64,000 nucleotides of DNA from Candidatus Aminicenantes bacterium (GTDB lineage Bacteria > Acidobacteriota > Aminicenantia > UBA2199), in contig CAVYQZ010000006.1 in assembly GCA_963770755.1 (NCBI GenBank), positions 12,509 to 76,508 on the forward strand, given 5' to 3'. The position numbers were made by a program, and so were the translations under genes. Position 1 is the stretch's first letter. Each line of letters opens with the position of its first letter. A model generated the notes under the pieces. That model saw only the letters and a list, made by a program, of their open reading frames with translations. It was not told the DNA's origin and ran no database searches. Positions 10,574 to 37,646 of the stretch are shown in pieces.

Positions 10574-11929
<1,356 letters not shown>

Positions 11930-19039: not shown

Positions 19040-21229
19040 TTGATGAGTAAGAAATCTTTTATCTTTCTATGGCTGTTGACTGGATGTTTGGCCATACCGG
19101 CAGCCGCGGCCGAGGTGCAGGCCGTGCGCGTTGCCCATGGTCCCAAAATTGACGGCCGCCTGGACGATCCTGTTTGGAGCTCCGCCATCGTCTTCAGTGC
19201 TTTCCGCATGGCCGAACCCGTTGCGGACGGGGAACCGAGCGAAAAAACCGAGCTGCGCGTCCTTTACGACGACGGCAACCTCTATATCGGCGTCCGTTGC
19301 CTGGACGGCGAGCCGGGCCGGATCGCTGCCCATTCCATGCTCCATGACAGCGGCAAGTCGCAGAATGGCTGGGGCGGCCAGGGTTCCGTCGGCACCGGTG
19401 ACGATGATGTCGTGCGCGTGCTGCTCGACCCTTTTCTGGACAAGCGCAGCGGCTATTTTTTTACCGTTAATCCGCGCGGCGCCCGCGGGGAAGGCCTGAC
19501 CTCGGGGGGCAGCTCCAGCCTCAACTGGGACGGCATCTGGGACGCGGCCGGCCATATCGACGGCAGCGGCTGGAGCGCTGAAATGAAAGTCCCCTTCAAG
19601 ACCATTCAGTTCCGTGCCGAACTGGCCACCTGGGGGATCAATGTCGAAAGGTTCATCGCCCGCAAGCAGGAGAAGATCCGCCTGGCCGGTACCGACCGCG
19701 ACAGCAATTTCTTCAATCCCATGGCGGCCGCTGCCTTGAGCGGTATAGCTGGCGTCAAGCAGGGCAAGGGTATCACCATCCGTCCCTACGGCCTGGTCAG
19801 TGTCGAGAAGGATCACGCTGCTACTTCGGGTTACCGCTGGAAACTGGACGGCGGTTTCGATGTCTACAAGAATTTTACCCCCAACCTGGTGGGTGCCTTC
19901 AGCTACAACATGGATTTTGCCGAGACCGAGGCTGACGAGCGGCGCATCAACCTGACCCGCTTCCCGCTTTTTTTCCCCGAAAAAAGGATGTTCTTCCTGG
20001 AGGGCTCGGAAACCTTCAGCTTCAGTTCCAGCGTCAGTTTTCAGCCTTTTTTCAGCCGCAAGATCGGCCTGTACCAGGGCGAACAGGTTCCGGTCCTGTT
20101 CGGCGGCAAGGTATACGGCAAGATTGGCCAGGTCAACCTGGCTTTTCTCGACGTGCAGACTGAAGAATTTTCCGGGCTGCCGGGGCGCAATTTCCTGGCC
20201 CTGCGCGTGACCCGCGACATCTTCAGCGAGAGCAAGGCAGGCTTCATTCTGACCAACGGCAGCCCGTCGGGTGAACGCAACACCCTGCTCGGGGCCGATT
20301 TCCGCTACGCCACGTCGCGCTTCCTGGGCAGCAAGAACCTCAACCTCGCCGCCTGGGCGGCCTACAACTGGAACGAAAAGATCGCGGGCAGCCATGCCGG
20401 CTTCGGTTTCCGCGCCAACTACCCCAACGACCTCTGGGACATCCAGAGCACCTACGCCTACTACGGCGAAGCGCTCGACCCCGGACTGGGCTTCATGCTG
20501 CGCCAGGGGATCCAGACCGCCTACCTGCGCATCGGCCTGCAGCCGCGTCCCGGAACGGGATGGCTGAAAAATCTGGTCCGGCAGTTCTTTTTCAATGTCA
20601 GCGGCGATTTTTACTGGGACCTGAAGGGCAACCTGGAAACCAGCCGGCTTGAAGCCATGCCCATGAGTCTCAAAACCGAAAGCGGCGAGCAATTCAGTTT
20701 CAAGGTCACGGCCAATCGCGATGTCCTGCCTGCCGCCTTCGAGGTGTCGACCGGGGTCGTCCTGCCCGCCGGGGCCTACGGCTTCACCAGCCTAAACATC
20801 TCTTTCAGCAGCGCCGCGCACCGCCGCTGGGTTTTCGACGCCGGCATCGACTTCGGTGAATTCTATTCGGGCCGCTACGAGAACGCCAGCGCCGGCCTGA
20901 CCCTCAAGTACAAGGGCTACGCCAACCTGGGGATCGACGTCAACCTGGTGCGCGGCCGACTGCCCGAAGGGGATTTCAACGAGAACGTCTTCCAGCTCAA
21001 GGCCGACATTTTTCTTTCGCCCGACATCGGCTTCATGAACTACATCCAGTACGACAGCGTCTCCAAACTGCTGGGCTGGAGCGCCCGCCTGAAGTGGCGC
21101 CTGGCGCCCGGCAACGAGCTCGCCCTGATCTACAACAAGAACTGGGAACGGCGCTGGGACCCGGCCAGCAGGTTCTATCCCTCGGAAGAGCGGGGGGTCT
21201 TCAAGCTGTCGTTGTCCATAAGGCCGTAA
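19040..21229 (+). CDS. CBM9-like plus DUF5916 beta-barrel outer-membrane protein
   Basis: Signal peptide; IDGRLDD..W, WSAEMKVPF, NMDFAETEAD..NLTRFPLFFPEKRMFFLEG. Confidence 0.85.
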   Translation: MMSKKSFIFLWLLTGCLAIPAAAAEVQAVRVAHGPKIDGRLDDPVWSSAIVFSAFRMAEPVADGEPSEKTELRVLYDDGNLYIGVRCLDGEPGRIAAHSMLHDSGKSQNGWGGQGSVGTGDDDVVRVLLDPFLDKRSGYFFTVNPRGARGEGLTSGGSSSLNWDGIWDAAGHIDGSGWSAEMKVPFKTIQFRAELATWGINVERFIARKQEKIRLAGTDRDSNFFNPMAAAALSGIAGVKQGKGITIRPYGLVSVEKDHAATSGYRWKLDGGFDVYKNFTPNLVGAFSYNMDFAETEADERRINLTRFPLFFPEKRMFFLEGSETFSFSSSVSFQPFFSRKIGLYQGEQVPVLFGGKVYGKIGQVNLAFLDVQTEEFSGLPGRNFLALRVTRDIFSESKAGFILTNGSPSGERNTLLGADFRYATSRFLGSKNLNLAAWAAYNWNEKIAGSHAGFGFRANYPNDLWDIQSTYAYYGEALDPGLGFMLRQGIQTAYLRIGLQPRPGTGWLKNLVRQFFFNVSGDFYWDLKGNLETSRLEAMPMSLKTESGEQFSFKVTANRDVLPAAFEVSTGVVLPAGAYGFTSLNISFSSAAHRRWVFDAGIDFGEFYSGRYENASAGLTLKYKGYANLGIDVNLVRGRLPEGDFNENVFQLKADIFLSPDIGFMNYIQYDSVSKLLGWSARLKWRLAPGNELALIYNKNWERRWDPASRFYPSEERGVFKLSLSIRP

Positions 21230-21250
21230 AGGCACTTCGTAACGAGTGAT

Positions 21251-21303
21251 AACACAAATCATCCACAAGCCCTGGTGGATTTGATTTGTTTATCCCCAAG
21301 GGG
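21251..21303 (+). repeat. 53-bp structured mini-element, copy 1
   Basis: aacacaaatcatcc-N12-ggatttgatttgttt-atccccaagggg, flanked by GAT/GAC. Confidence 0.85.
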
Positions 21304-21423
21304 GACGCGTAACAAGTGACGAGAGAAGAAAAGTCAGGAAATAATTCATTATGTAGGGGTTTGATTCATCAAACCCTTCAAGCGGATGCAATTTAGATTG
21401 TTGTCTGTTATGCTTGTCAACTG

Positions 21424-22494
21424 ATGAAAAACATGTTGAATGACAAACTGCAAAAAAAACTGGTACGTCTGCTGCGCAGCGCTCCCGAATTGCGTCTGGA
21501 CGCGAACCAGAAGCTGGTCATTTTTTCCGATCTGCACCTGGGCGACGGCGGCGGCAACGACGATTTTAAAAAAAATGGCGACCTGTTCCTGGCCATGCTG
21601 CGCCGCCACTACCTGCCGGAGTGTTTCACCCTGATTCTCAACGGCGACATCGAGGAATTGGCCCTCTTCCGTCTGAAGCGCATCATGACCCGCTGGAGCG
21701 GCGTCTACGGCGCCTGGGCCGAGTTCGCCGCCCGCGGCGCCTTGTTCAAGCTGGCCGGCAACCATGACCTGGCGCTGCTGCGGCGCCGTTCCGGTGACAT
21801 GCCCTTCCCGGTCAGCGAAGCGCTGAACATTCGCTGGAACGGCCAGTCGCTTTTCGTGCTGCACGGCCACCAGACCTCGCACCTGAACTGGGTTTTCCAG
21901 ACCCTGGGCATCCTGTTTTTGCGCTGGCTGCTCCAGCCCCTGGGTTTCGGCAACTACACGGTGGCCCGCAGCAGCCGCCGTCGTTTTCGCGTGGAAAAGC
22001 GTATCTACGACTTTGCCCGCCGCAAAAAGCTGCTGGCCCTGATCGGACATACCCACCGGCCGTTGTTCGAAACCCTGTCGCGCCTCGACACCCTGAAGAT
22101 CGAGATCGAAAACCTCTGCCGCAAGTATCCGCAAGCCGCCGCCGGAGAGAAGTTTGCATTGGAATCAAAGTTGACTCTCCTGAAGGAAGAATACGTCAAG
22201 CTGCAGCACAAGGACCACCGGACCCGGAGTTCCGAAAATCTCTACCACGACGGCCCATTGCTCCCCTGCTTGTTCAATTCGGGCTGCGGCATCGGCCGCC
22301 ACGGCATCACGGCCATCGAAATTGCCGGCGGCCGGGTGGCCCTGGTCTATTGGTTCGACCGCCGGCGCTCTGAAAAGTATTTGGATTTTGAAGGCTACCC
22401 GCCGCAGCCGCTCGGCGACAGCGACTATTTTCGCGTGATTCTGAAGGAAGAAGACCTGGATTATATATTCACCAGGATCAATCTTCTAGGATGA
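21424..22494 (+). CDS. Calcineurin-like metallophosphoesterase
   Basis: DLHLG, NGD, GNHD, HGH, GHTH, NSG. Confidence 0.88.
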   Translation: MKNMLNDKLQKKLVRLLRSAPELRLDANQKLVIFSDLHLGDGGGNDDFKKNGDLFLAMLRRHYLPECFTLILNGDIEELALFRLKRIMTRWSGVYGAWAEFAARGALFKLAGNHDLALLRRRSGDMPFPVSEALNIRWNGQSLFVLHGHQTSHLNWVFQTLGILFLRWLLQPLGFGNYTVARSSRRRFRVEKRIYDFARRKKLLALIGHTHRPLFETLSRLDTLKIEIENLCRKYPQAAAGEKFALESKLTLLKEEYVKLQHKDHRTRSSENLYHDGPLLPCLFNSGCGIGRHGITAIEIAGGRVALVYWFDRRRSEKYLDFEGYPPQPLGDSDYFRVILKEEDLDYIFTRINLLG

Positions 22495-22498
22495 CTTT

Positions 22499-22526
22499 GT
22501 GACGCGTAACGCGTGACACGTGACGA
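22499..22526 (+). repeat. Heptamer tandem array GT(G/A)ACRN x4
   Basis: GTGACGC GTAACGC GTGACAC GTGACGA just after the stop codon. Confidence 0.8.
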
Positions 22527-22684
22527 GGGAAGAAAAGAATTCAGAATAGAAATACAATAAAAACTTAAGAGACTTTGGTTTCTGTTTTCTGTAGGGAACT
22601 GCGTTCTCTACTGCGTACAGAAATCGTGATATTGATAAAGAGCGCGGATCTGTGTTTGCTCTGGAAGAAAATATAAAATGCTTT

Positions 22685-23077
22685 TTATTTGGCCTCATCG
22701 ATCATGAGCATGGTCTTCTCCTCGACCTCGCGGGCCACCCGGCGCCAGGTCCGCATCGCTGGACAGCGCCGCCAGCATCTGCCCGGGCTTGATCATGCCG
22801 ATCTTGGTCACGCCTTTTTCGGTGAACACCGAGATGCGGCAGGGCAGCGCCATGTTCAGGCGCATGTCGGCGGACATCACCTTGGCCGCCTGCTGCGGAT
22901 TGCAGATTTCAAAGATCCGGCATTCTTCCGGGAAAGCGACGCCTTTGCCGCGCAGGGTGGAACCCACGTCATGGACGTGCAGACACCCCGAAAGCCATGG
23001 CGTTTGACCGCGGTTTCCAAATCGGCTGTTGCCTGATCGAAACTTTTTTCGCTTTCTACGATGTAATACATGGGCAT
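22685..23077 (-). pseudogene. DUF302 family protein, frameshifted
   Basis: YYIVESEKSFDQA..; FEICNP..LPCRISV; indels near 22990 and 22740. Confidence 0.8.
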
Positions 23078-23180
23078 CTCCTCGGAGTCCGTACTGGCTT
23101 GCCGTGTTGCTTTGGCCGGCAGCGGCACGCTCACAGCCTTATTTTAACAAACCCGGCAAGATAAGAAAAGGCCGGGCCGT

Positions 23181-23210
23181 TTGACAAAATTCCGGCTCCG
23201 ATGGTAAAGT
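23181..23210 (+). promoter_or_regulatory. Putative sigma70 promoter of the ABC operon
   Basis: TTGACA-18 nt-TAAAGT with an extended TG. Confidence 0.5.
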
Positions 23211-23246
23211 GATTCTTTGCAATCCGCTTGAAAACAGGAAGGCGAC

Positions 23247-23973
23247 ATGATCGAACTGCGCAATGTTTGCAAGAGCTACAACAAGGGCGCCGTGCGCGCC
23301 GTCGACGACCTCACCCTGGCCGTGCCGCCCGGGGAGATCTTCGGCTTTCTCGGACCCAACGGCGCCGGCAAGACCACGACCATCAAGATGATCGTCGGCA
23401 TCCTCACTCCGGATTCGGGGACTATCGCCATCGAGGGGCTTGACAACCGCCGCGAACCTCTGGCCTGCAAGGCGATCACCGCCTACGTTCCCAGACTCTC
23501 CGGAGCTCTACGAGCGCCTGACCGGCATCGAGTACCTCAACTTCATCGCTGACGTATACGGCGTGCCGGCCGCTGCGCGCAGCGAGCGCGCCACGCGCTG
23601 GCTGGAGATCTTCGAACTGACGACGGCAGCCGCCGATCCCATCCAGACCTACTCGCACGGCATGCGCCAGAAGATCGTTCTCAGCGGCGCCCTGCTGGTC
23701 GAGCCGCGCGTCTTCGTCCTCGACGAGCCCATGACCGGCTTGGACCCGCGCTCTGCCCACCTCCTCAAGGAGGCCATGCGCGCCCACTGCGACCGTGGCG
23801 GCACCCTCTTCTTCTCGACCCACGTCATGGAGGTCGCCGAAAAGTTCTGCGACCGCATCGCCATCATCCACAAGGGACGGCTGCGCGCCTGCGCCACGCT
23901 GGATGAGCTGCGCCGCCAGGCCGGCGAATCGCAGTCCCTGGAAAATATCTTCCTGGAGATGACCGGCCAATGA
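23247..23973 (+). CDS. ABC transporter ATP-binding protein, one frameshift near 23490
   Basis: GPNGAGKT in the first frame; YSHGMRQK, LDEP and STH in the second. Confidence 0.85.
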
Positions 23974-25639
23974 GACGCCTCCTGGTCCTGCTGCGGTGCC
24001 GGTTTGCGCCAGAACTTCGCCCTGGCGCTGCTCAAGCACAAGGTTTTCAAGGAAAGGAAGGACCTTTGGCTGGTGTTGCTCGTCGGCCCTGGGTTTGTTG
24101 GGCCTGCTGCCCGTGATCGCGCTGTATTTCAAGGTTCTCGGCCTGCTTTTCTCGATCCTGCAAGTCCAGGGCCAGGAAACGGCGCTGCTGACCCTGGCCA
24201 TCCTGGCCGGCCAGTTCCTCGTCCTGATCTTCGGCCTCTTCTATGTCCTTTCGGCCTTTTACTTCGCCCGTGACCTGGAGTTCCTGGTCTCTTTGCCGGC
24301 CCGGCCCTTCGAGGTCATCGGCGCCAAGTTCGGCGTCATCATGGTCAACGAATACCTGACCGCGGCGCTCATCGTCGTCCCGGCCTTTATCGTCTACGGT
24401 GTCATGGCCGCCAAGCCACCGGCCTACTGGCCGCTGGCCGCCATCGTCTTTTTACTGCTGCCGGTCATCCCCCTGGCCCTGTCGGGCCTGCTGGTCATGG
24501 CCATGATGCGCCTGGTCAACGTCAGCCGCAAGAAGGATTTCCTGCTCCTGGCCGGCTCGCTGGTGCTGGTAACGGGGGTCCTTTTTCTGCAGCTCGGACT
24601 GGTCGGCAATCGCAGCCCCGAGGAGCTGCTGAAGTTTTTCACCGCCGCCGACGGACTGACGCGCCTGGTGGGCGAAAAGTTCCCGCCCTGCATCTGGGCC
24701 TCGCGCCTGCTGGCCTCGGGATTCAGTGCCCCGGGCCCGGGCTACCTGGTCCTGTACGTCGGCGTTTCCGTGGCCGTGCTGCTGCTCCTGCTGCTGGCCG
24801 CGGAAAAGCTCTTCTACCGCGGCCTGATCGGCCTGGCGGAAATGGCCGTCCGCCGTAAAAAACTTTCCGCCGCCGCCCTGGCCGGCAGTTTCGTCCATCG
24901 CCGCCGGGCCTGGCGCGCCATCCTGCTGCGCGAGTGGAAGCTGATGAACCGCACCCCCATTTTCCTGCTCAACGGCATCTTTTCGGTCATCCTGGTCCCG
25001 GCCATGTTTTTTTTCATGGTGCGCAGCGGCGCCGGCTCGTCCTCGATGGCCATCCTGAAACTCCTGGGCTCGGGAAAGCGCACGGTCGAGGTCCTGGTCG
25101 CCACCGTATTCTTCATCGCCTGCGGCTGTCTGAACGGAACCGCCTCGTCAACCTTTTCGCGCGAAGGTCGCAACTTCTGGATTTCCAAGGTCATCCCGGT
25201 CGCTCCCGGACGCCAGGTCATGGGCAAATTCATCCATTCCTACCTGGTGGCGGTGCTGGGGGTTGTGGGCGGTTCGCTGGTGGCCAGGCTGGCCATGGGC
25301 CTGAACTGGAGGAGCATCCTGCCGGCTGTGCTGCTGGCCCTGGCCGCCGGGGTATTGCTCACCGCAGTGAACATGGCCGTCGATCTGGCCCGGCCGCTGC
25401 TGACCTGGACCAACCCGGTGCGGGCCATCAAGCAGAACCTGAACGTGGTGCTGGCCATGGCCATCGACGCCGGCATCGTCTTCGTCTTCTACCACGTCAT
25501 GCAATTCCTGCGCCGGGCCGGATTGGATGGCCACGTGCTGGTCGCCGTTCTATTCGCCTTCACCGTCATGCTGGCGGCCGCCGCGCTCTATTTCCTGGTC
25601 CGCTTCGCTGGCAAACGCTACGCGACGATTGTGACGTAA
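23970..25639 (+). CDS. ABC-2 type permease, with 5' frameshifts
   Basis: ATGA overlap with the ATPase; many TM helices; DLEFLVSLP, FSREGRNFW. Confidence 0.8.
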
Positions 25640-25647
25640 GAAAATGG

Positions 25648-25682
25648 TTCAGGGGACAGGGTCGAGGGGCTAGGGTCCAGCG
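25648..25682 (+). repeat. NNNAGGG heptamer array
   Basis: ttcAGGG gacAGGG tcgAGGG gctAGGG tccAGCG. Confidence 0.75.
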
Positions 25683-25928
25683 TGAAGACAAGGAAAGGCT
25701 AAAAGCAGTATAAAGCAACCCAGTTCATATGGATGTCTGTCTTAAGTCAACCCAAGTATTCAAAAAAACAATTCTTGAGCTTGCTGGTTGTTTTTTACCT
25801 TCAACCTTTTCCCCTACTTTCTGTTTTCGCTTTCAAGCTTGGTAATTTTTTATGTGTTTTTTGAGTTGAAAAATTCAATTAATTGAACTTTTTACGGTGG
25901 GAATAAATCAAAGCTGGGGTGTGATGGC

Positions 25929-26878
25929 TCAAGCTCCGACGTCCGGAATGATCTCGTCAGGTGAACAGTCTTGCTTGGCCATGTTGCTAGTAAGTATCCC
26001 AGCCAGCATGATCGTGCCTCCGACGAAGAAATAAAAGGTGATGCCGATGCCGAAAAACAGGTAGGTGAATATCGCCGTCAGCGGCGGGTTAAGATAAACA
26101 AATAATGATACGTTGGAGGCGTGCCAGTGCTTGACCGCAATGTTCCACAGGCTGTAAGCCAGGATGGTGCAGGCCAGGGAAAGGAAGGCGGCGGCGCCGT
26201 ATTCCAGCATGCCCAGGGAAAGGACCTTGGCGATGAAGGGCCGGTCGATGAAAAAAAAGAGCGGCAGGCCGCCGATGGCCAGGCTGACGAAATTGAAGAC
26301 CAGCGGCGAATGGTTTTTCAGCGCCGGCTTGATGATGACGGTGGCCGCGGCCCAGCTCAGCGGGCCGCCCAGGACCAGCAGGGCGTAGGGGACCTTGTCC
26401 AGGGCGATCCAGGTCCCGCCGGCGGCGCCGACCCGGCCCAGCAGCACCACCAGGGCCAGGCCGATGAAGGTGACGACGGTGCCGAACAGGCGCCGGCGCG
26501 TGAAGGGTTCGTCGCAGGAAGCGCACGGCCAGCAGCAGGGTGAGCAGGGGGTTCAATGCGATCAGCAGCGAGGCGGCGTTGGGCTGCACGTACTTCATCC
26601 CCGAGTTCAGGAACATGTTGTAGCTGATCACCATCAGCAAACCGCCCAGGGTGATGCGCACGGGATGGGCCTTGACGATCTGCCCGGCCTCGGCCCGGTA
26701 GAACAGCATGACGACGGCTCGTGCTGATCAGGGCCACCGGGATGAAGCGCAGCCTGAGCAGGTCGAAGGCGGTCAGCCTGGCCAGCAGCACCTTGATGGC
26801 GATGAAGGAATTGGACCAGATCAGGAAGGTCAGGATCAATAGAAGGAATATTCCCAGGTCACGTTTTTTATCAGACAA
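25929..26878 (-). pseudogene. EamA/DMT transporter, frameshifted into three frames
   Basis: IWSNSFIAIK..RF; ASLLIALNP; LAYSLWN..YLNP in successive frames. Confidence 0.8.
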
Positions 26879-27095
26879 AGGTCCTCCGAGTTTCTTCAGT
26901 TCAGGGCTTTGCGCAAGCAGGGATTGTAAGGCGGTTCATTGAACTTGTCAAACAAATGAAGTAAGTGTTAGTGATAGTGTTAGTGTTAGCAAGAGACCCC
27001 AAATAAATTCAGGAAAAGTTAATCAAACCCCAACACCTGGAATAATCTTATATTTTCAATGTCGAACTTCGAACGTTTCTTTCTCGTCACGCGTC

Positions 27096-27148
27096 CCCTG
27101 CAGGGACAAACAAATCAAATCCGCAAAGATATGCGGATGATTTGTGTT
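27096..27148 (-). repeat. 53-bp structured mini-element, copy 2
   Basis: Reverse complement aacacaaatcatcc-N12-ggatttgatttgttt-gtccctgcaggg, flanked by GAC/GAC. Confidence 0.85.
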
Positions 27149-27156
27149 GTCACGCG

Positions 27157-28947
<1,791 letters not shown>

Positions 28948-29115
28948 GGGAAATTCCTCTTTTTTTATTCATTATAATTCAAATAAAAATTTGCTGCTTG
29001 GGTGGATATTTGCAAATAAAATTTATCAAATGGCGGCTGTCGGGGACCAGGCCCATACCTGGAATTATTTAAAACGGGAGTGGGGCAATTGGGGACGGTG
29101 CTTGACTTTGTGACT

Positions 29116-30024
29116 TTAGCATTTTTTGGCGATAAGCCGTTTCCGGGCGTCCTTGTACAACTTTGCCAATGAGTGCAATTTTATATCACGGAATTCGGGC
29201 AATTGGGCAATTTCTCTGTAAGTAAGTCCTGATAATTCCTTTAGTCTGACCAGCAGTTTGCTACGCAATTGTTTCCCGGCCAACGTCCCGTAATCCAACT
29301 GGGCGAACTTAATTTTGTTTTCTTTTTCCAATTCCCAATATACTTTCTCTACTGGCTCGAACCAGCTGTCTTCCTTGCGCCGTCTTTCCAGGGATCTCTC
29401 ATCGATGCGTTTGTCGCGTTTCTCCAGGGCTTTTTCCAAAAACTCATATTCCCCCAGCAGATCGCCAAAGTCACTTTTTTTTATCGGCAGCTTGTCTGTT
29501 TGTGTGCCCAAGATCTCTTTTATCATGAATTTTTTTCCACCCCATAATTCATGGACAAACAAATTATCCGTGATAGCCTGCCTGGTTTTCCCCAAGTACT
29601 CCCCTGCACTTGACCATGGGTATTCAATGCAATTGGCCACCAGTCCCGCGCGCACCGGGTTTTGCAGCAGATAAAGAATCGCCAACCGTAAATACGCATC
29701 ATCCTGGATCAAGGTCGACTTATAGCGATTCTGGAAAACGTACCCCTTGCCGCCATGTTTGTGGCGGTAGTAGATGCCGTAGGAGCCGTTGACAATCTTT
29801 AGCAACGCACTCATGCGGCCCGAATTGTTCTCCAGCAGCACATGATAATGGTTGCTCATCATGCAATAACCGATGAGGCGCACCCCCAGTAATTTGACCT
29901 TATCAGAAAGAATTTCCAAAAAGACCTTCTTGTCCTCATCGTCAGGAAAAATGAATTCTCCCCTTAAGCCACGGTTCATCACATGATGGAAAGCGCCTGG
30001 ATAGGTAAGTCTTGCCCGCCGCAT
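29116..30024 (-). CDS. HUH Y1 transposase (RAYT-like) with C-terminal HTH
   Basis: HVMNRG, MSNHYHVL (HUH), YLLQNPVRAG, YPWSS, LTYREIA. Confidence 0.9.
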   Translation of the reverse strand: MRRARLTYPGAFHHVMNRGLRGEFIFPDDEDKKVFLEILSDKVKLLGVRLIGYCMMSNHYHVLLENNSGRMSALLKIVNGSYGIYYRHKHGGKGYVFQNRYKSTLIQDDAYLRLAILYLLQNPVRAGLVANCIEYPWSSAGEYLGKTRQAITDNLFVHELWGGKKFMIKEILGTQTDKLPIKKSDFGDLLGEYEFLEKALEKRDKRIDERSLERRRKEDSWFEPVEKVYWELEKENKIKFAQLDYGTLAGKQLRSKLLVRLKELSGLTYREIAQLPEFRDIKLHSLAKLYKDARKRLIAKKC

Positions 30025-30030
30025 AAATAT

Positions 30031-30059
30031 AGTTTACACTAATGAAGTCACAATGTCAA
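30031..30059 (-). promoter_or_regulatory. Leaderless promoter of transposase 1, -35 box inside the inverted repeat
   Basis: TTGACA-17 nt-TAAACT-6 nt-ATG; no RBS. Confidence 0.6.
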
Positions 30060-30261
30060 GCACCGTCCCCAATCCTCCCCCAATCCTCCCCTGGTTTTCG
30101 CCCAGTGCAGCGGCCCTAAGGATTATTCAATGTTGAGGCAGTTCTCCTTGAAGCTCTGGATGACACTCGCATCCAGCCAATAAATATGATTGTTCCGGGT
30201 AAAAAAAGAAATTTTCCATCCGGAGAAAAGGAACAATCCGTCCCTAAGCTTTCCTTGGAGG

Positions 30262-31287
30262 TTATAGGCGCGGGCCATAGACGAAGGCGCCGGCTGTGAA
30301 AATGATGTCCTTGCCCGTCAGGTCGAGGTAGAATCCCTCCTGGTCGAATCCCTCGAATATGCCGTCGCTGCCGGGGCTGGCGATCAGGAACCGGGCGCTA
30401 TCCGCATCGATTTGGCAGATAAAAGCATTGCCCCAGGCGTCTTTTTCCGTAAGCTCCTGCAGGAAACCGGGGAAAAGATCCTTGACGGCCCGTGGATATT
30501 TCATGCGCTCCAGGTAGTGCCGCTCGGCGGCGGCGCCGATTTGTTGCATCATCTCCATGGTCTTCCTGTATCCGCTCAATACATCCGGGTCAAACGCGGC
30601 TGGAGCCAATTCTTTCAAAGCGGACCTGGCCCGGTTGGCCGTCTCGGCATCGGGGCTCGCTTCCGCAACCTTCTGAAGCAGGGCTTTTCCCTCCGCCAGG
30701 AAGCCCAGATTGACCAAGGCCCTGGCCTTATCCAGGAGGCGGGGATAGGAGCCCGGTTCCAGTGCCAGGGATTTTTCCGAATAATAAAGGGCCAAGTCCC
30801 ACTCCTTGTCAGCGGCTGCAAAACCGCCAAGTTTGTCCAAGGCCTCTTTCTTCTTGTCTTTTTCGGCCTCATACTTGTGGAGATAGGTCATCAGGGCGTC
30901 CTTGGCTCCGAGCGTATTTCCGCACATCAGATTGTAGGTGTAGATGTCCCAATGGGCCATCCGGGCTGACTTGGTGTCGGGCGCTTTGAAAAGAATGTCC
31001 GTGTTCAGTTGTAGTATTTGGCTATAGTCCGTGGAGTCGGGGCCCCCTGTTTCCAAGAGCTTCTTGATCGTCTCGATTCGAAGCGCGGCGAGTTCCCGTT
31101 GCTCTGCGAGCGGGGCATCCGTCCGCGCAAAGAATGGATTTTCAGACATCTGCTTGAGCGAATCAATGGTAGCGGCGATTTTATGCTCCGCAGTATTAAG
31201 TATCTTCTCGACAGTATAGGTTTGCCGGGAGGGGGAACCGCAGGCCATCACGCCAAGCGTTAACAGGGAAATCACGATTCTGCCCAT
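30262..31287 (-). CDS. TPR lipoprotein with C-terminal GspG/pseudopilin-like domain
   Basis: Lipobox VMAC; TPR helices; YPRAVKDL..KDAWGNAF..IASPGSDG. Confidence 0.65.
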   Translation of the reverse strand: MGRIVISLLTLGVMACGSPSRQTYTVEKILNTAEHKIAATIDSLKQMSENPFFARTDAPLAEQRELAALRIETIKKLLETGGPDSTDYSQILQLNTDILFKAPDTKSARMAHWDIYTYNLMCGNTLGAKDALMTYLHKYEAEKDKKKEALDKLGGFAAADKEWDLALYYSEKSLALEPGSYPRLLDKARALVNLGFLAEGKALLQKVAEASPDAETANRARSALKELAPAAFDPDVLSGYRKTMEMMQQIGAAAERHYLERMKYPRAVKDLFPGFLQELTEKDAWGNAFICQIDADSARFLIASPGSDGIFEGFDQEGFYLDLTGKDIIFTAGAFVYGPRL

Positions 31288-31350
31288 CTTGTCCTCCTTA
31301 CAAATTTCACCTCGGCCTTGGGGCCGGGTCTTTTCATTTGCACGGGCATC

Positions 31351-31373
31351 GGGGTCAGATCTCAATTATAAAG
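31351..31373 (+). repeat. Orphan copy of the element 2 end
   Basis: ggggtcagatctcaattataaag versus ggggtcaggtctcatttgtaaag at 33491. Confidence 0.75.
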
Positions 31374-31418
31374 TTATCATGATTGGATTACGCCTGGACA
31401 TTGGTGTCTGGGCTTTCA

Positions 31419-32144
31419 CTATTTAAGTTGAAATACAATATGTCCATTGACAATCCCATCCGCAGTGCCTCTGCCCGGAGTAATTGTATAAACTCCCGGG
31501 GGCAGAGTTTGTCCTTCGAGAGTTTTTCCCAAACTCACCCCGGCACTGTTAAATACTTTTGGTCCCGGATTGAAGTGGTTATGAGGGGATAAATATCTTA
31601 AAAATGCCCGGTGTGGTTGGCTGGCAGCAAAGATTCCCATACCATCAGTTCCGGTATAAGCTGCACTTATTATTGTTGTGGGTGAACAAATAACAATCAC
31701 ATTGCCATCCCATCGGGGTTTTACCACGGCAGTTTGCATTCCCCACAAGATGACATTTTCCGGTTTAAATACTGTATTTAAAAAGATAGTCACTGATCCG
31801 CCAAGGGTTCTCAGGACATATTTTCCAGGAGGCAGTATTCCCTTTAAGCCATTTTTCTCAGTGAACGTTAAACGGCTAACAGTAAAGTATAGACTGTTAT
31901 TTTTCCATATGGAAAAACTTTCAAGTTTTTGTGTATATGAAACCCGCATTATTTTTGCTGGGGCGGTTAATGTCACTACGTTTCCTGTTGTTGGGGTCCG
32001 GAATAACTGGAATTCAGTCGCCTGACTCATGGAAAAGCCAACACCAATTATAAATAGAAACAGGAGATATTTTGTTATTGAACCGGCCCTATTTCCTTTT
32101 GATGTTTTGTTGGATTGATTTGAAAACATTTTTTTCATGTACAT
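31419..32144 (-). CDS. Low-GC hypothetical exported protein
   Basis: GGAGG RBS; hydrophobic signal; repeated LPPGxY motif. Confidence 0.65.
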   Translation of the reverse strand: MYMKKMFSNQSNKTSKGNRAGSITKYLLFLFIIGVGFSMSQATEFQLFRTPTTGNVVTLTAPAKIMRVSYTQKLESFSIWKNNSLYFTVSRLTFTEKNGLKGILPPGKYVLRTLGGSVTIFLNTVFKPENVILWGMQTAVVKPRWDGNVIVICSPTTIISAAYTGTDGMGIFAASQPHRAFLRYLSPHNHFNPGPKVFNSAGVSLGKTLEGQTLPPGVYTITPGRGTADGIVNGHIVFQLK

Positions 32145-32239
32145 CCTCCTTTTTTTAACCTGCTATAATAGTACCGGTAATTATTTTTTAATACAACTCG
32201 TATTAAAAGAGTCTTAATTATTATTTCAGGAGGCAGCCC

Positions 32240-33466
32240 ATGAAAACAACGATGGTCATCCCATCCTACTGGGGACGTGAACATGCTCTTGAGACAAGAG
32301 AGACCGATGCCGTCTACGACCACCCCACTCCGCTTAACGAGGAAGGGACACTCAAAAGAGCTCTCGAAAGCCTCCGTATCCTCGATGACAAGGATTTTAG
32401 CCTGGTGGTTATTGCCGTTGCCAACGCCGAAGATATTGCAGAAAGGGTGGAAGACAAGGTCTCCGGCATCATTTCCTCCGTTGCTGCTGATGTCCCGACG
32501 GTTCTCTTCAGCCATTCAAACCTGAGGCGAGTTCACAAGGTCTTGAAAAAGGCTGATGGTGAGCAATTTTGCGAGCTCCTAAACCTCCGGGGATATTCCA
32601 ATGTTCGTAATCTATGTCTGTTTCTGCCCCATGTGCTCGGCTCGGATATTGCCGTTCTTATCGACGACGATGAGGTTTTCGAGAATCCCGCCTTCATAAG
32701 CAAGGCACGCGAGTTCATCGGGCGAAGGCTCGGCGATGAGTTTATCGGTGCCGTGGCCGGATACTATCTGCAGCCCGATGGCGGCTGGCTTGTCAAGCGG
32801 AATAAAAGCAAGTGGATGGAGTATTGGGACAAGCTCGACAGAATGAACGAGGCCTTTGAACAGATAATCGGCAGCGGCCCGCGACTCAAGGAAACTCCCT
32901 TTGTTTTCGGTGGCAATATGATCGTACACAGAAAGATTTTTACCCGCATTCCATTCGACCCGAACGTGACGCGAGGAGAAGATATTGATTTCCTAATAAA
33001 TATGAGGATGTTCGGGCATAAGTTCTTCCTCGACAACACCCTTTCCATCAAACACCTGCCCCCGCCCAAGTCTAATCCGACCTGGAAACAGCTTCGGGAG
33101 GACATATACCGATTCGTTTTCGAGAGGGCCAAGCTCCGTGATCAGGATGCTACTGTGGAGGGTATGGTTGCTGTATCCGCCGCAGAACTGTCTCCTTACC
33201 CCGGGGCATTTCTGAAGGACGACCTCGAGGATAAAATTGCGAATGCCTGCACGATCCTGGCAGACGATTACCGTGCCCAGGGCAAGGAGGCTGACAGGGC
33301 GGAAACGTTGAAGAATATCGAACTGGCGACCGGGGATGCTCTTCCCGTGGAGAACGCCTTTCACCAGCTTCTCAATATCCAGAAGCTGTGGGAGAAGATG
33401 ATGGAGTTTGCTTCGCGAGAGGAAATAAAAAGACGCCTAACGCAGGAAGTTACACGTATTAAATAG
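32240..33466 (+). CDS. GT-A fold glycosyltransferase-like protein
   Basis: RGYSNVRN, IDDDE (DxD), FGGN, RGEDID, IKH. Confidence 0.65.
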   Translation: MKTTMVIPSYWGREHALETRETDAVYDHPTPLNEEGTLKRALESLRILDDKDFSLVVIAVANAEDIAERVEDKVSGIISSVAADVPTVLFSHSNLRRVHKVLKKADGEQFCELLNLRGYSNVRNLCLFLPHVLGSDIAVLIDDDEVFENPAFISKAREFIGRRLGDEFIGAVAGYYLQPDGGWLVKRNKSKWMEYWDKLDRMNEAFEQIIGSGPRLKETPFVFGGNMIVHRKIFTRIPFDPNVTRGEDIDFLINMRMFGHKFFLDNTLSIKHLPPPKSNPTWKQLREDIYRFVFERAKLRDQDATVEGMVAVSAAELSPYPGAFLKDDLEDKIANACTILADDYRAQGKEADRAETLKNIELATGDALPVENAFHQLLNIQKLWEKMMEFASREEIKRRLTQEVTRIK

Positions 33467-33490
33467 CAAGGATGACTCAAGGGGAGGCGT

Positions 33491-34571
33491 GGGGTCAGGT
33501 CTCATTTGTAAAGATTGCTATTAATTTTTAATCGGTATATAGTTTAAAAATGGCAAGACCATTGCGGATCGAATACGAAGGCGCATTCTACCATGTGTTG
33601 GCACGCGGGGAAAGGCGGGAAGATATTTTCACCCAGGATGGGGATAAAGAGAAATTTCTAGTCAAGCTGGCCGAAACCGCTGAAAAGTTTCGGCTGCTCA
33701 TTCATGCCTATGTGCTCATGGATAACCATTATCACCTGCTGGTGGAAACACCGCAGGCCAATCTCAGTAGGGCCATGCACCATCTGAACGCCAGTTATTC
33801 AAATTGGTTTTGTCGTAAATACCGGATCGTCGGTTCTGTTTTTCAAGGGCGCTTTAAGGCGATTTTGGTTGAAAAGGATGAATACTTGAAAATGCTGAGC
33901 GCGTATATCCATCTGAATCCGGTGCGTGCGAAAATCGTTTCCCAGCCGACCATGTATCGTTTCAGCAGCATGCCTTTCTATGCCGGGAAAGGCAAGCCTC
34001 CCAAGTTTTTACATACGCATGATTTGCTGGCGCTTTTCTCCGGCAAAACCCAGTACCTGGCTTTCGTGCTGGGCTATGAAAACGGGGGCGCCGAGATAGA
34101 AAAAGAGGAAATATATGGATGCAATTCGCTTTTGGGAAGCACGGGGTTTTTACGGGAAGCCTATGCAAAGTTAAAGGCATCCGGCAAAAAAATGGACAAG
34201 CGGGAACAGGCGGATATTCGCGATGCGAGACGAGTGTCGGCGGATGACATATTCGAAGTTTTAATTGTCGATATGAAAATTCATGAGGATGATTTATGGA
34301 GCCGGCGGCGAGGGAACGTATATCGCAAACTGTTGGTTTATGCCCTGCGTCGTTACACGGCCTTGACCTTAAAAGAGATTGGCGCCATTATGAAGATGGA
34401 TTACGCAGCGGTTTCGGAGTTGGCGCGAAGCTTTGAAAGGGCTCTGGAGACCGAGCGAAAATATCAGCGCTTGGCAAAAATCCTTGAGAAAGAAATAGTC
34501 GATCGTCAATTGCTGGCTGATGCGTGAGCTTCAAATCAATAACGATATTTTTAAAATTGAGACCTGACCCC
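33491..34571 (+). mobile_element. Y1 transposase element 2 with inverted repeats
   Basis: ggggtcaggtctca at 33491 and its perfect reverse complement tgagacctgacccc at 34558-34571. Confidence 0.85.
33550..34527 (+). CDS. HUH Y1 transposase (RAYT-like) with C-terminal DnaA-like HTH
   Basis: MARPLRIEYEGAFYHVLARG, MDNHYHLL, YIHLNPVRA, LTLKEIG..DYAAVS. Confidence 0.92.
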   Translation: MARPLRIEYEGAFYHVLARGERREDIFTQDGDKEKFLVKLAETAEKFRLLIHAYVLMDNHYHLLVETPQANLSRAMHHLNASYSNWFCRKYRIVGSVFQGRFKAILVEKDEYLKMLSAYIHLNPVRAKIVSQPTMYRFSSMPFYAGKGKPPKFLHTHDLLALFSGKTQYLAFVLGYENGGAEIEKEEIYGCNSLLGSTGFLREAYAKLKASGKKMDKREQADIRDARRVSADDIFEVLIVDMKIHEDDLWSRRRGNVYRKLLVYALRRYTALTLKEIGAIMKMDYAAVSELARSFERALETERKYQRLAKILEKEIVDRQLLADA

Positions 34572-34622
34572 AATTCTGCGACACTCTCAAACTTGATGGG
34601 GAATTCTGGACAATGCGATCTG

Positions 34623-34651
34623 TTGACATTTCATCAAATTCTTCTTAAAAT
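34623..34651 (+). promoter_or_regulatory. Putative sigma70 promoter
   Basis: TTGACA-17 nt-TAAAAT. Confidence 0.55.
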
Positions 34652-34715
34652 CCATCATGGAGAAAATTGATTTTCCTATCAATTTTCAATTATTTTATTT
34701 AAAGTAGGGGGAACA

Positions 34716-35039
34716 ATGAAAAATAAAAAATTTTTACTCATCATGCCGATTTTCATCTGTCTGCTTTTGGTTTCTAACTGCAAAAACCAAGAGGAAGATC
34801 CTTGCTCGCGAGTCAGTGTCAATTCCAGTGGCAATGTGAGTGTGTCTGATTGCGGGAGCGGTGGTGTCATGTATTCCAATATTACTTATAATTCTTTTGG
34901 CCATCGTACTGGCTATGATTTCACCGTCACCTGCTCGACCGGGGGAACCTTTTCTGGCCATGTTACGCTGACTTACGATTTTGGTCGGAGTAACATCGTA
35001 TCTAAAAGTTTGACGGTCAACGGTATTAAATGCTTCTAA
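34716..35039 (+). CDS. Small low-GC lipoprotein, hypothetical
   Basis: K-rich N-terminus, hydrophobic core, VSNC lipobox-like; beta-rich with several Cys. Confidence 0.7.
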   Translation: MKNKKFLLIMPIFICLLLVSNCKNQEEDPCSRVSVNSSGNVSVSDCGSGGVMYSNITYNSFGHRTGYDFTVTCSTGGTFSGHVTLTYDFGRSNIVSKSLTVNGIKCF

Positions 35040-35196
35040 GTGAAATCTTCTAGGTAAAAAGCGCTAAAATTCGGGGCGGGCAGATTGTTTTTACCGTCCT
35101 GCCCTTTAAATCCTTGGATCCCAATACTGAGATCGCCCTGACCTTCACCCAAACACTCAGTGGAACTTTTTGGCCGCTGCTGTGGGACGGTAAATA

Positions 35197-35226
35197 GGGA
35201 CAGTGCTTGACTTTGAGACTTTAGCA
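35197..35226 (+). repeat. Orphan copy of the element 1 end
   Basis: gggacagtgcttgactttgagactttagca, 28/30 identical to 29092-29121. Confidence 0.85.
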
Positions 35227-35297
35227 CTTACTTAATCCGATCAGCTTTCTTTAACAAAAATCCTTTGGTATAATTGAACAAATAAGAGGAGAAAATC

Positions 35298-35756
35298 ATG
35301 CCGACAAGAAAACAATTTTGCCAGAGCTGCCTGGCCATGGCCGTGGCCGGGCTGGGGGCGCCGCTGCTGTTCGGGAAGAAAGGCGACGAGATGAAGAAAG
35401 AAGCGGGCCAGGAGAAGAAGATGATCGCTAAGTGCGGTCTGGTCTGCAGCGACTGCCCGGCCTATATCGCCACCAAGAATAACGACGACGCCCTGCGCGC
35501 AGAGACGGCCAAGAAGTGGTCCGCGATGTTCAAGGCCGACATCAAGCCTGCCGATATCAACTGCGACGGCTGCCAGAGTGAATCGCAGCGCCTGTTCAGC
35601 TACTGCCAGACCTGCGAAATCCGCAAGTGCGCCCGAGAAAGAAATCTGGCCACCTGCGCTGACTGCCCGGACTATTCCTGCGAGAAGCTGGACAAGTTCC
35701 TGGCCCAGGTGCCGGAAGCCAGGAAGGTGCTGGATGGATTGAGGAAAGGGGGCTAG
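35298..35756 (+). CDS. DUF3795 Cys-rich protein with Tat-like leader
   Basis: CGLVCSDC, CDGC, CEIRKC, CADCPDYSC; leader TRKQF plus a hydrophobic stretch. Confidence 0.8.
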   Translation: MPTRKQFCQSCLAMAVAGLGAPLLFGKKGDEMKKEAGQEKKMIAKCGLVCSDCPAYIATKNNDDALRAETAKKWSAMFKADIKPADINCDGCQSESQRLFSYCQTCEIRKCARERNLATCADCPDYSCEKLDKFLAQVPEARKVLDGLRKGG

Positions 35757-35779
35757 GGTTCAGGGTACAGGGGCTAGGG
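35752..35779 (+). repeat. NNNAGGG heptamer array
   Basis: gctAGGG ttcAGGG tacAGGG gctAGGG. Confidence 0.75.
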
Positions 35780-35801
35780 TGAAGAAAAGGCAATTCCGGA
35801 T

Positions 35802-35884
35802 GTAGGGGAGGGTTTGGATCCCCTGCGGGGACAGAAAACCAAATCCACGTATGGAGACGCGGATGATTTATACTGTCTCTCCCG
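35802..35884. repeat. GTAG-type REP-like palindrome interrupted by mini-element copy 3 (35821-35874)
   Basis: GTAGGGGAGGGTTTGG-ATC-[54 bp]-GTC-TCTCCCG. Confidence 0.7.
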
Positions 35885-37619: not shown

Positions 37620-37646
37620 TGCTTTTTTAAACGGGAAGCCTCCGGG

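Follow-up and report, generated by a model that had tools for sequence, protein, structure and literature searches.

What is the hairpin of roughly 58 bases that recurs between the genes of an Aminicenantes-like genome? The initial annotation of this locus had taken it for a tiny non-autonomous mobile hairpin or structured RNA that targets other repeats, possibly moved by an HUH enzyme. In the window, by which we mean the whole 64-kb stretch of DNA that was analyzed, copies are present at each of the three sites so annotated, with bounds slightly wider than first given. All three are intergenic (3 copies in 64 kb), and their orientations are mixed within 15 kb, one on the plus strand and two on the minus strand:

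21248-21306, plus strand: copy 1, covariance model score 79.9 bits
27093-27151, minus strand: copy 2, covariance model score 84.2 bits
35818-35877, minus strand: copy 3, covariance model score 67.3 bits

Extent and fold of the repeat

The element family is real and sharply bounded. A 16-base motif is identical in all three window copies, and the pattern AAATCATCC-N12/14-GGATTTG has 3 exact matches in the window versus 0 in 100 dinucleotide shuffles. The covariance model search proposed as a check, run on the 64-kb window with filters off, returned only the three copies; there is no fourth, for the scores next drop to 23.2 and 19.9 bits, given by the reverse strands of these copies, and all remaining window matches score below 10 bits. 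One relative was found, L001 (the MAG copy below), in an uncultured Aminicenantes MAG; under a model trained on the three window copies alone it reaches 61.9 bits, as against 11.5-18.4 bits for the other 7 pattern matches. The known members are four in all, the three window copies and the MAG copy. Searches of plasmids and phages with the element gave no match. The Rfam check gave 0 family matches in the window at gathering thresholds, leaving the element without a known Rfam family, and when the three sites were scanned permissively, no match overlapping a copy exceeded that to SNORD59, at 17.2 bits against a cut-off of 45.

The unit is non-coding and 56-60 nt long. Two inverted arms of about 20 nt, GAYAR-YACAAATCATCCRC on the 5' side and GYGGA-TT-TGATTTGTYTRTC on the 3' side, form an imperfect long hairpin of 47 nt, in which a TT bulge (2 nt) on the 3' arm, between inner and outer stem, is invariant in 4/4 copies; the arms are nearly invariant, and the hairpin tip differs in each copy with its pairing kept. 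In the alignment of all four sequences, a small sample, 97.7% of 86 cells are paired and 5 of 22 pairs (3-47, 5-45, 18-31, 20-29 and 21-28) have changed on both sides, as compared with 29-60% pairing and 0-1 such pairs in slid controls; the observed covariation score was matched by 6 of 500 shuffles. The conserved arms, variable loop and covarying inner stem of the original description are thus borne out. A second, short hairpin, TCCC-loop-GGGA, had also been described 3' of the long one, and it is indeed present in all four copies (as TCCCC-AA-GGGGGA in copy 1); it is almost invariant, with one U-A to U-G change, so that covariation neither supports nor tests it.

That the element is strand-asymmetric is supported by the bulge on one arm in every copy and by the wobble pairs, all four of which read G-U on the strand of the element, whereas none would do so on the other. 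As RNA, copy 1 folds at -21.3 kcal/mol (z -2.29) and copy 2 at -26.4 kcal/mol (z -4.55); copy 3 gives -23.5 kcal/mol (z -2.98) on its own strand and -17.6 kcal/mol (z -1.44) on the opposite one, and folds well on its own strand only. The stem lies between an A-rich tract on its 5' side and a T-rich one on its 3' side, and a terminator pattern scan flagged the inner stem ATCCRC..GYGGAT with its T-rich TTGATTTGTT tail in 3/3 window copies; the T tract is interrupted, and it pairs back into the stem.

Genes and repeats around the copies

Copy 1 starts 19 nt past the TAA stop of ORF 19040-21229 (DUF5916/CBM9) and copy 2 starts 8 nt past the TGA stop of ORF 27157-28947 on the minus strand (DUF255, thioredoxin-like), both in sense orientation. 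Copy 3, on the minus strand, lies between two plus-strand genes, DUF3795 (35298-35756) and radical SAM (36084-37619); a minus-strand ORF considered as its neighbor was rejected, the adjoining gene being the radical-SAM ORF, and with this correction copy 3 is antisense to both neighbors. The MAG copy is flanked by the starts of two divergent genes and follows the 3' end of neither; terminator-like placement (sense, 3' of a gene) holds for 2/4 copies. The genes adjoining the copies have no function in common, and the gene contexts of the element in the two genomes are unrelated.

The copies keep company with other repeats:

22499-22526, plus strand: uninterrupted GTGACGC-type heptamer array, an "empty" paralogous site (period 7, 3.9 copies)
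21239-21366, plus strand: composite module around copy 1, from local alignment to 27021-27160 on the minus strand
27021-27160, minus strand: composite module around copy 2, homologous to 21239-21366
21352-21378, plus strand: GTAG-type hairpin TGTAGGGGTTTGAT-TC-ATCAAACCC, 46 nt 3' of copy 1

Copies 1 and 2 had been said to interrupt a heptamer array whose uninterrupted form lies nearby, and the register agrees: both split a GTGACGC-type array in phase, and the 7-nt register is restored on removing the element together with one triplet (computed for copy 1, read by eye from the flanks for copy 2). The TGA stop upstream of copy 2 falls within the first heptamer of its array. The uninterrupted array at 22499-22526 starts 4 nt past the TGA stop of ORF 21424-22494, is followed by GGGAAGAAAAG, and has the same kind of GA-rich tail without the element; this "empty" site is paralogous to the filled arrays and does not represent an orthologous allele. 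The module around copy 1 runs in the order array, element, array, GA-rich tail and TGTAGGGGTTTGATT hairpin, and the downstream flank alone aligns between the two modules with a score of 33 versus 16.1 +/- 2.0 (maximum 23) for shuffles. Since copies 1 and 2 lie within this common module of about 130 nt, they may descend from one insertion, and there may have been no more than three independent insertions. That the element targets other repeats is therefore only a possibility: copies 1 and 2 do sit in arrays, but the proposal draws on fewer than three independent events.

The sequence GGGTTTGRWT has three matches in the window (21357 plus, 27021 minus and 35810 plus; 0.97 expected), every one of which overlaps a copy or is within 61 nt of one. 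At copy 3 the GTAGGGGAGGGTTTGGAT motif, which resembles the GTAGGGGTTTGAT hairpin 3' of copy 1, abuts the element; the candidate right arm, ATCCACCCTC, is 19 nt past copy 3 and needs a 2-nt deletion to match, and there is no uninterrupted copy. The earlier view, in which a GTAG-type REP palindrome is split by copy 3, is therefore not confirmed; what the sequence shows is a motif that abuts the element.

The 5'/3' triplets are GAT/GAC at copy 1, GAC/GAC at copy 2, GAC/GAT at copy 3 and GGC/GGC at the MAG copy; the left flank is G-R-Y in 4/4 copies, and the two triplets are identical in 2/4 (copy 2 and the MAG copy) and one transition apart in the others. Direct GAY triplets, as first noted, are thus present at all three window copies, but target duplication does not follow from them, since RTC within the unit (columns 47-49) is the pairing partner of the 5' GAY and the exact match is limited to half of the copies. 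The third base of the 5' triplet covaries with column 47 (T-A in copy 1, C-G in the two further copies that have letters there), and the 3-47 pair of the MAG copy, read by eye, is also C-G. The inverted arms stop at column 49, the unit runs on through the second hairpin, and the 3' triplet occupies columns 59-61. The triplet and array-register data fit insertion without duplication, a 3-bp duplication, or a stem.

Candidate enzymes and known repeat families

Two genes of the kind that an HUH mechanism would call for lie between copies 2 and 3, within 9 kb of copies:

29116-30024, minus strand: RAYT-like Y1 (HUH) gene 1, 302 aa (Y1_Tnp 5.8e-6)
33550-34527, plus strand: RAYT-like Y1 (HUH) gene 2, 325 aa (Y1_Tnp 3.2e-15)

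Against REP_Tyr_transpos they score 53.6 bits (gene 1) and 71.9 bits (gene 2), both below the cut-off of 80; they share 31% identity, and gene 2 has a C-terminal DnaA-type HTH (Bac_DnaA_C 9.6e-5). Gene 1 is flanked by 29-nt inverted repeats (29088-29116 / 30045-30073, 97% complementary), with a solo copy of this repeat at 35202-35221, and gene 2 by inverted GGGGTCAGGTCTCA (33491-33504 / 34558-34571). The element flanks neither gene in the window, each having its own, unrelated repeats, and the foot of the element's hairpin has no GTAG, the 5' foot being GAYAR(Y)AC in all copies. On this evidence the suggested mobilization by an HUH enzyme did not gain ground: the link is only circumstantial, and we regard an HUH enzyme as a possible but rather doubtful agent of the element's spread. 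The 58 window ORFs scanned include no DDE transposase and no integron integrase, and the window contains no full-length parent element or TnpB. The integron attC site, with its core-site consensus RYYYAAC / GTTRRRY, was rejected as an identity for the element, because the ends do not fit the core sites and no integrase is among the scanned ORFs.

REP/REPIN-RAYT systems (Bertels & Rainey; Messing et al. 2012) are among the closest known to the element. The element is likewise a short extragenic hairpin with conserved inverted arms and a spacer that varies from copy to copy but stays folded; excerpts of a REPIN review describe nearly invariant arms around a spacer saturated with changes yet folded (PMC3337134). 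It has an imperfect stem with a conserved bulge, and extracts of work on REP binding by its Y1 nuclease describe the mismatched bulge as essential (PMC3479197). The same genome has RAYT-like genes, each with its own repeat family. Unlike REPs and REPINs, the element has GTAG only in separate neighboring hairpins and not at its foot, its arms are inverted copies of one another and not palindromic REPs themselves, it is 56-60 nt long, where the REPIN drawn in those excerpts measures 89 bp (PMC3337134), it carries an extra GC hairpin at one end, and it flanks neither RAYT-like window gene.

With IS200/IS605 elements and their miniature derivatives (PATEs) it shares strand-specific folded ends, and insertion by a short target without duplication would fit the arrangement GAY / element...GAY / together with the in-phase restoration of the array. 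The ends of IS200/IS605 elements carry similar, matching hairpins, whereas those of the element are dissimilar, with a 47-nt A/T-rich hairpin on the left and a 13-nt TCCC..GGGA hairpin on the right. The internal RTC, complementary to the left flank and to the right end, recalls the guide-sequence recognition of cleavage sites described in extracts of PMC3479197; the element's guide would, however, be 3' of the long hairpin and not 5' of a hairpin foot. Also unlike IS200/IS605, it has neither parent element nor TnpB in the window and its copies are of mixed orientation, which within 15 kb is at odds with a strict replication-strand bias.

E. coli BIMEs and Neisseria Correia elements are mosaic intergenic repeats that double as terminators. 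The element resembles them in being composite with other repeats (array, GA-rich tail, GTAG hairpin) and in having a terminator-like core directly 3' of genes, and differs in that it has no sequence relationship to them, is far smaller, and has terminator placement and orientation in only 2/4 copies. The SDRs of the Nostocaceae, 21-27 nt long, have conserved flanks and a structured, variable center and also occur inside tandem heptamer repeats; like them, the element is a very small repeat with an unknown mobilizing agent, inserted precisely into another repeat. The comparison with SDRs is by description only (Elhai et al. 2008, Genome Res 18:1484): excerpts of citing papers state that SDR5 (21 nt), of unknown function, inserts into HIP1, between its bases 3 and 4, and that SDRs are reported only in Nostocaceae, whereas the element is 56-60 nt long and belongs to an Aminicenantes-like genome, with its only relative in an Aminicenantes MAG.

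Weighing the explanations

The sense placement of copies 1 and 2 just past stop codons (19 and 8 nt), the A-rich and T-rich tracts on either side of the stem, the terminator-like stem and tail flagged in all three window copies and the homologous module of about 130 nt would all suit a host cis-element, that is, an intrinsic-terminator-like or mRNA 3'-end-protecting hairpin forming part of a module (array, GA-rich tail, GTAG hairpin) that recurs in 3' intergenic sequence and was spread by duplication or recombination and not by its own transposition; in excerpts of the REPIN review, flanking A/T runs are likewise said possibly to reflect co-option for attenuation (PMC3337134). Such a host function could explain part of the pattern. 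As the whole explanation we consider it unlikely: copy 3, antisense to its neighbors, argues against a pure terminator role and folds weakly on their sense strand, the MAG copy is 3' of no gene, the T tract is interrupted and paired into the stem, the arms and bulge are kept across two genomes far beyond what a terminator needs, and the element is absent from the array at 22499. A classical cut-and-paste MITE, in which the arms would be TIRs for a DDE transposase and G-R-Y a 3-bp target-site duplication, would account for triplets that match in two copies and are a single transition apart in the rest, and for the return of the array register on removal of the element and one triplet. We judge it improbable, because the unit runs to column 61, past the arms, which stop at column 49, so that the supposed duplication does not flank the inverted repeats, because the 5' triplet pairs with RTC and covaries with column 47 at its third base, and because no DDE transposase is among the scanned ORFs.

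A duplex palindromic binding site, in which a free spacer would separate two half-sites bound for example by a nucleoid protein or a regulator acting as a dimer, is very improbable. It would fit two invariant half-sites of about 10 nt around a variable spacer, the half-site TCATCCACA of copy 1, which we take to resemble a DnaA box, and the DnaA-type HTH carried by the neighboring RAYT-like proteins; yet the spacer, of variable length (12-14 nt), shows compensatory changes at 18-31, 20-29 and 21-28, of which a duplex site needs none, the restriction of wobbles to G-U is what a single strand would give, the neighboring genes have no common function, and the base that makes the DnaA-box likeness is the covarying column 18, not a conserved one. 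The stable conserved fold with covariation on one strand would also be expected of a small RNA gene present in several copies or of a regulatory RNA resembling a riboswitch, readings to which we give only the slightest chance: Rfam gave no match at gathering or permissive thresholds, there is no consistent promoter or flanking gene class, and in so small and nearly perfect a hairpin the only single-stranded region for a ligand or target is the hypervariable loop.

Our preferred reading, held at about even confidence, is that the element is a new, lineage-restricted family of non-coding hairpin dispersed repeats, miniature and non-autonomous, of the REP/REPIN kind; the odds that this repeat spread by insertion we put at even or slightly better. 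Against this reading count the small number of copies and the fact that neither excision nor an insertion polymorphism, nor a cognate enzyme, was seen. A unit of this family would spread as one folded DNA strand, inserted after cuts beside the G-R-Y triplets at both ends, by an enzyme supplied in trans, the likeliest candidate being an HUH Y1 (RAYT/IS200-like) transposase whose gene would lie at another locus of the genome. Heptamer arrays and GTAG hairpins, intergenic repeats of other kinds that lie just past the 3' ends of genes, would be its preferred landing places, and where the element comes to lie in sense after a stop codon, as at copies 1 and 2, its core of A-tract, stem and T-rich tail may double, secondarily, as a terminator-like or mRNA-end hairpin. 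The element would add a family to the small, probably mobile, repeats carried by many bacteria.

A hairpin repeat folded on one strand

The window carries three copies of a 56-60-nt hairpin repeat at the sites claimed in the initial annotation, as direct reading of the sequence and alignment confirm, in a unit slightly wider than first drawn.

Copies of the repeat (sequence read and alignment)
21248-21306, + strand, copy 1
27093-27151, - strand, copy 2
35818-35877, - strand, copy 3

Exact matches to AAATCATCC-N12/14-GGATTTG number three in the window and zero in 100 dinucleotide-preserving shuffles, a result that together with the covariance-model scan rules out a chance origin of the motif. 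For that scan a model built from the three copies and L001, a related copy outside the window, was run unfiltered over the window: scores were 84.2, 79.9 and 67.3 bits for the copies and 23.2 and 19.9 bits for their own reverse strands, and all other matches fell below 10 bits, which leaves the 64 kb with no fourth, degenerate copy. The search for further members proposed in the initial annotation thus found a relative in another genome and none in the window.

That relative comes from a collection of genome contigs, to which the window's own genome does not belong, scanned with an exact 23-base pattern that misses diverged members. The scan returned eight loci, of which L001 alone, from a MAG that bears the label Candidatus Aminicenantes, has the whole unit. 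Scored with a model of the three window copies only, L001 reaches 61.9 bits and the other seven loci 11.5-18.4 bits; the seven were rejected as relatives, their match being limited to the bases forced by the pattern. The L001 element lies between a divergently transcribed gene pair, with no heptamer array near it, and the element had no blastn match in the plasmid or phage collections.

The fold of every copy is a long imperfect hairpin with a short GC hairpin after it, with RNA fold energies of -21.3 to -27.9 kcal/mol (z-scores -2.3 to -4.6) and a similar fold as DNA. The long hairpin spans columns 3 to 47 of the four-sequence alignment (the three copies and L001) and has ACAAATCA/TGATTTGT as its outer stem and TCCRC/GYGGA as its inner stem, an unpaired TT on the 3' side that is the same in every sequence, and a tip that is unlike in all copies and nevertheless keeps its pairing. 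Across these four sequences 97.7% of 86 cells are paired and 5 of 22 pairs (3-47, 5-45, 18-31, 20-29 and 21-28) are changed on both sides; in a control with partners slid by 1-3 columns, pairing was 29-60%, with 0-1 both-side-changed pairs. The observed covariation score was equalled or passed in 6 of 500 shuffles; because the sample is four sequences, the long hairpin is well, though not overwhelmingly, supported. The TCCC..GGGA hairpin that comes second is nearly invariant, and covariation is therefore uninformative about it.

The fold is maintained on one strand only, since each of the four wobble pairs is G-U when read on the element's strand and an A-C mismatch on the opposite one, and since copy 3 has a fold energy of -23.5 kcal/mol (z -2.98) on its own strand versus -17.6 (z -1.44) on the other. 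The comparison with Rfam called for in the initial annotation gave no family match: there were zero hits at gathering thresholds over the whole window and sub-threshold noise only in permissive scans of the three sites, and a known RNA family is rejected on that basis.

Gene ends, heptamer arrays and flanking triplets

The genes beside the three copies have nothing in common. Copy 1 lies in sense orientation 19 nt past the stop codon of a DUF5916/CBM9 gene and copy 2, also sense, 8 nt past that of a DUF255 thioredoxin-like gene; copy 3 is antisense, between a DUF3795 gene and a radical-SAM gene. Codon-position GC content and Pfam identify the latter as the + strand ORF 36084-37619 and rule out an overlapping - strand ORF as the neighbour. 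The window has two paralogous DUF3795 genes 2.9 kb apart, seen as a 283-nt direct repeat at 35410-35692 and 38279-38561 (71% identity), with similar ribosome-binding regions.

Heptamer arrays are a wider feature of gene ends in this window. On the sense strand they start within ~13 nt of the stop codon in 8 of 47 candidate genes, as judged by eye; their units are of the GTGACGC, CAGGGNT, ACTACTA and AGGACAG types, four of the eight were scored independently by TRF, and a purine-rich GAAGAAAAG-like tail comes after most of them. They recall the heptamer (STRR) arrays of cyanobacteria, a different lineage.

Heptamer arrays in the window
21230-21250, stop-codon array
22495-22526, stop-codon array
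22499-22526 (within the preceding entry), uninterrupted GTGACGC-type array with a GA-rich tail like that of the hosts, after the next gene (read, and tandem-repeat scan)
25645-25695, stop-codon array
27152-27160, stop-codon array
35742-35792, stop-codon array
44808-44834, stop-codon array
51289-51339, stop-codon array
56255-56337, stop-codon array

The last 69 nt of an amidase gene (51218-51286) recur with 87% identity at 56183-56251, where they close a 39-codon ORF (56132-56251), and a heptamer array directly follows both. This arrangement suggests that gene ends and arrays were duplicated or recombined together.

Copies 1 and 2 lie within GTGACGC-type arrays that begin at, or no more than 10 nt from, the stop codon, the first heptamer at copy 2 including the TGA stop itself. 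Removal of the element and one triplet leaves the array in perfect 7-nt register at both sites (computed for copy 1, read by eye from the flanks for copy 2), which upholds the earlier claim that these copies interrupt an array whose uninterrupted form stands at 22499-22526. The filled and empty sites compared here are paralogous arrays, not alleles. Homology between the two copies reaches far past the element (21239-21366 versus 27160-27021), in the common order array, element, array, GA-rich tail and TGTWGGGGTTTGATT; the downstream flanks alone align with a score of 33, versus 16.1 +/- 2.0 for shuffles (maximum 23). On the strength of this homology, the two copies may descend from one insertion into a module that was later duplicated. 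An intergenic AGTGTT hexamer array (26964-26989, 4.3 copies) lies 3' of the module of copy 2.

The GAY triplets noted initially at the ends of each copy are present, as GAT/GAC at copy 1, GAC/GAC at copy 2 and GAC/GAT at copy 3, and L001 has GGC at both ends; their description as direct duplications is, with four copies and a 5' triplet that pairs with RTC, not separable from a stem or a guide. This 5' triplet is complementary to the RTC of columns 47-49, and its third base covaries with column 47 (T-A in copy 1, C-G in copies 2 and 3; the L001 row has a gap at the 3-47 pair in the alignment and C-G when read by eye). Within the short hairpin that RTC also pairs with the 3' triplet. The four copies fit three readings of the triplets without separating them: they are part of the stem, they are a 3-bp target duplication that is perfect in two of the four copies, or they belong to an IS200/IS605-style order, 'target / element...end /', with an internal guide.

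At copy 3 the proposed interruption of a GTAG-type REP is a tentative reading, the window having no intact copy of that hairpin for comparison: a GTAGGGGAGGGTTTGGAT motif adjoins the copy, and a candidate right arm 19 nt past it requires a 2-nt deletion to match. The 10-mer GGGTTTGRWT occurs three times in the window versus 0.97 expected and always overlaps a copy or lies no more than 61 nt from one; the element therefore keeps company with GTAG hairpins.

RAYT-like genes and neighbouring repeat families

Between copies 2 and 3 lie two paralogous genes (31% identity), 29116-30024 (-) and 33550-34527 (+), each encoding a Y1 HUH transposase domain and a C-terminal helix-turn-helix (HTH). Pfam Y1_Tnp is matched with E-values of 5.8e-6 (gene 1) and 3.2e-15 (gene 2), and the NCBIfam REP-associated tyrosine transposase model gives 53.6 and 71.9 bits, both below its cut-off of 80. 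More than 6,000 homologues of gene 2 exist, and the sources of several call them 'REP element-mobilizing transposase RayT'; named homologues come from Aminicenantes and Chrysiogenales MAGs (64% identity). Gene 2 also matches Bac_DnaA_C, and the C-terminal HTH of the pair is of DnaA type.

Repeat families of the two RAYT-like genes
29088-29116 and 30045-30073, 29-nt inverted pair at gene 1, with a solo copy at 35202-35221
33491 and 34558 (bracketed span 33491-34571), inverted GGGGTCAGGTCTCA at gene 2, with looser copies at 31351, 37644, 37715 and 38235

Neither family resembles the element, and with different repeats flanking both genes the element is rejected as the REP of either. The check for a transposase consistently beside the copies led to these two genes between copies 2 and 3, each bracketed by other repeats of its own. 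The genome therefore clearly runs RAYT-type systems with one repeat family each, as in the REPIN-RAYT pairs described in PMC3337134, where each RAYT has its own repeat family; the cognate enzyme of the element, if any, is outside the window.

Several other repeats and segments were recorded. Upstream of gene 1 the repeat includes a TTGACA-17-TAAACT that resembles a promoter, and a CCCCAATCCTC 11-mer array (30067-30091, 2.3 copies) lies beside the inverted repeat of that gene. Just 3' of the radical-SAM gene, a 71-nt tandem unit (37644-37785, 2.1 copies, 100% matches) begins with the GGGATCAGGTCTCA motif of the gene 2 family and includes a GGGGGTTTCCCCC hairpin. Another intergenic family is represented by a 42-nt inverted pair (76% complementary; 9662-9703 and 11962-12003) with CTTATCCAGC...GCTGGG in both arms, one at the 3' end of an acyltransferase gene (9736-10440, -) and one 3' of a glutamate dehydrogenase gene (10574-11929, +). 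An ABC ATPase gene and an EamA transporter gene (23247-23973, 25929-26878) each appear split over two overlapping frames, possibly as frameshifts or pseudogenes. Positions 1-4000 are low in GC (0.40-0.46 versus 0.55 window-wide), encode two HNH_2 endonucleases and an HTH with an IrrE-like peptidase, and could represent an island of foreign or defence type.

Proposed spread by insertion, rival explanations and significance

The most likely reading is that the element is a miniature non-autonomous repeat that inserts in folded, single-stranded form and spreads in this way. Its basis is seen directly: boundaries are sharp and contexts unrelated in two genomes, an array with an element-free relative is interrupted in phase, the arms are conserved while the tip is saturated with changes yet paired, and the structural signature, with its invariant bulge, belongs to one strand. 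The main rival, a terminator-like host element, draws on an inner stem and TTGATTTGTT tail that a pattern scan flags in all three window copies, two of them suitably placed and oriented; however, copy 3 is antisense and folds poorly on the sense strand, and the L001 copy is 3' of no gene. Since these two do not fit, we treat any terminator activity as secondary. We assign low probability to identification of the repeat as an integron attC site, as a DDE MITE or as a small-RNA gene.

For insertion by an HUH enzyme, a Y1 enzyme would cut the element, the G-R-Y triplets would mark the cut sites and the internal RTC would serve as guide. This agent, put forward as a possibility in the initial annotation, is the most likely candidate enzyme, though in our estimate less likely than not, and four points speak against it: the hairpin foot has no GTAG, the two end hairpins are unlike each other, copy orientations are mixed (one on +, two on -), and other repeats flank the local RAYT-like genes. 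It is quite improbable, in our estimate, that the element is the smallest self-contained single-strand (HUH) transposition substrate yet seen, with a guide triplet specifying both cuts; RTC (columns 47-49) would then pair alternately with the left-flank G-R-Y and with the G-R-Y at the element's right end. If true, this would account for heptamer arrays being interrupted in phase and without a scar and for the flank base that covaries with column 47, would make the stop-codon arrays landing pads, and would provide, in a second phylum, a mechanistic parallel to the SDR/heptamer phenomenon of cyanobacteria, which lacks an explanation.

REP, REPIN, SDR and MITE elements are small hairpin repeats that shape the DNA between bacterial genes, and to our knowledge the mobilising enzyme is unknown for many of their families. 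SDRs reportedly also occur within heptamer arrays. We file the element among the known small hairpin-forming dispersed repeats, as a new family member; among the papers listed by a literature search, none linked Aminicenantes with REP, REPIN or RAYT. By analogy the element may work like a REP or REPIN: its variable yet paired tip parallels REPIN spacers, which differ in every copy while the hairpin is kept (PMC3337134), and its TT bulge resembles the mismatched bulge without which the E. coli REP nuclease does not bind (PMC3479197). However, it lacks two of their defining features, GTAG at the foot and the flanking of a RAYT gene. Cyanobacterial small dispersed repeats (SDRs) are likewise very small units placed precisely inside another repeat; according to papers that cite their original description, SDR5 is 21 nt long, inserted between bases 3 and 4 of HIP1, of unknown function and restricted to Nostocaceae.

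Alone, the element is not a surprising discovery. The family is unusually compact, with a clear single-strand signature (the invariant bulge and one-strand wobble pairs), and its host lineage is uncultured, poorly studied and endowed with several RAYT-like genes; for these reasons, and because one related array is free of the element, it offers a handy system in which to study the recognition and copying of very small repeats. Its model improves the annotation of intergenic DNA and marks where assembly and recombination hot-spots are likely in these genomes.
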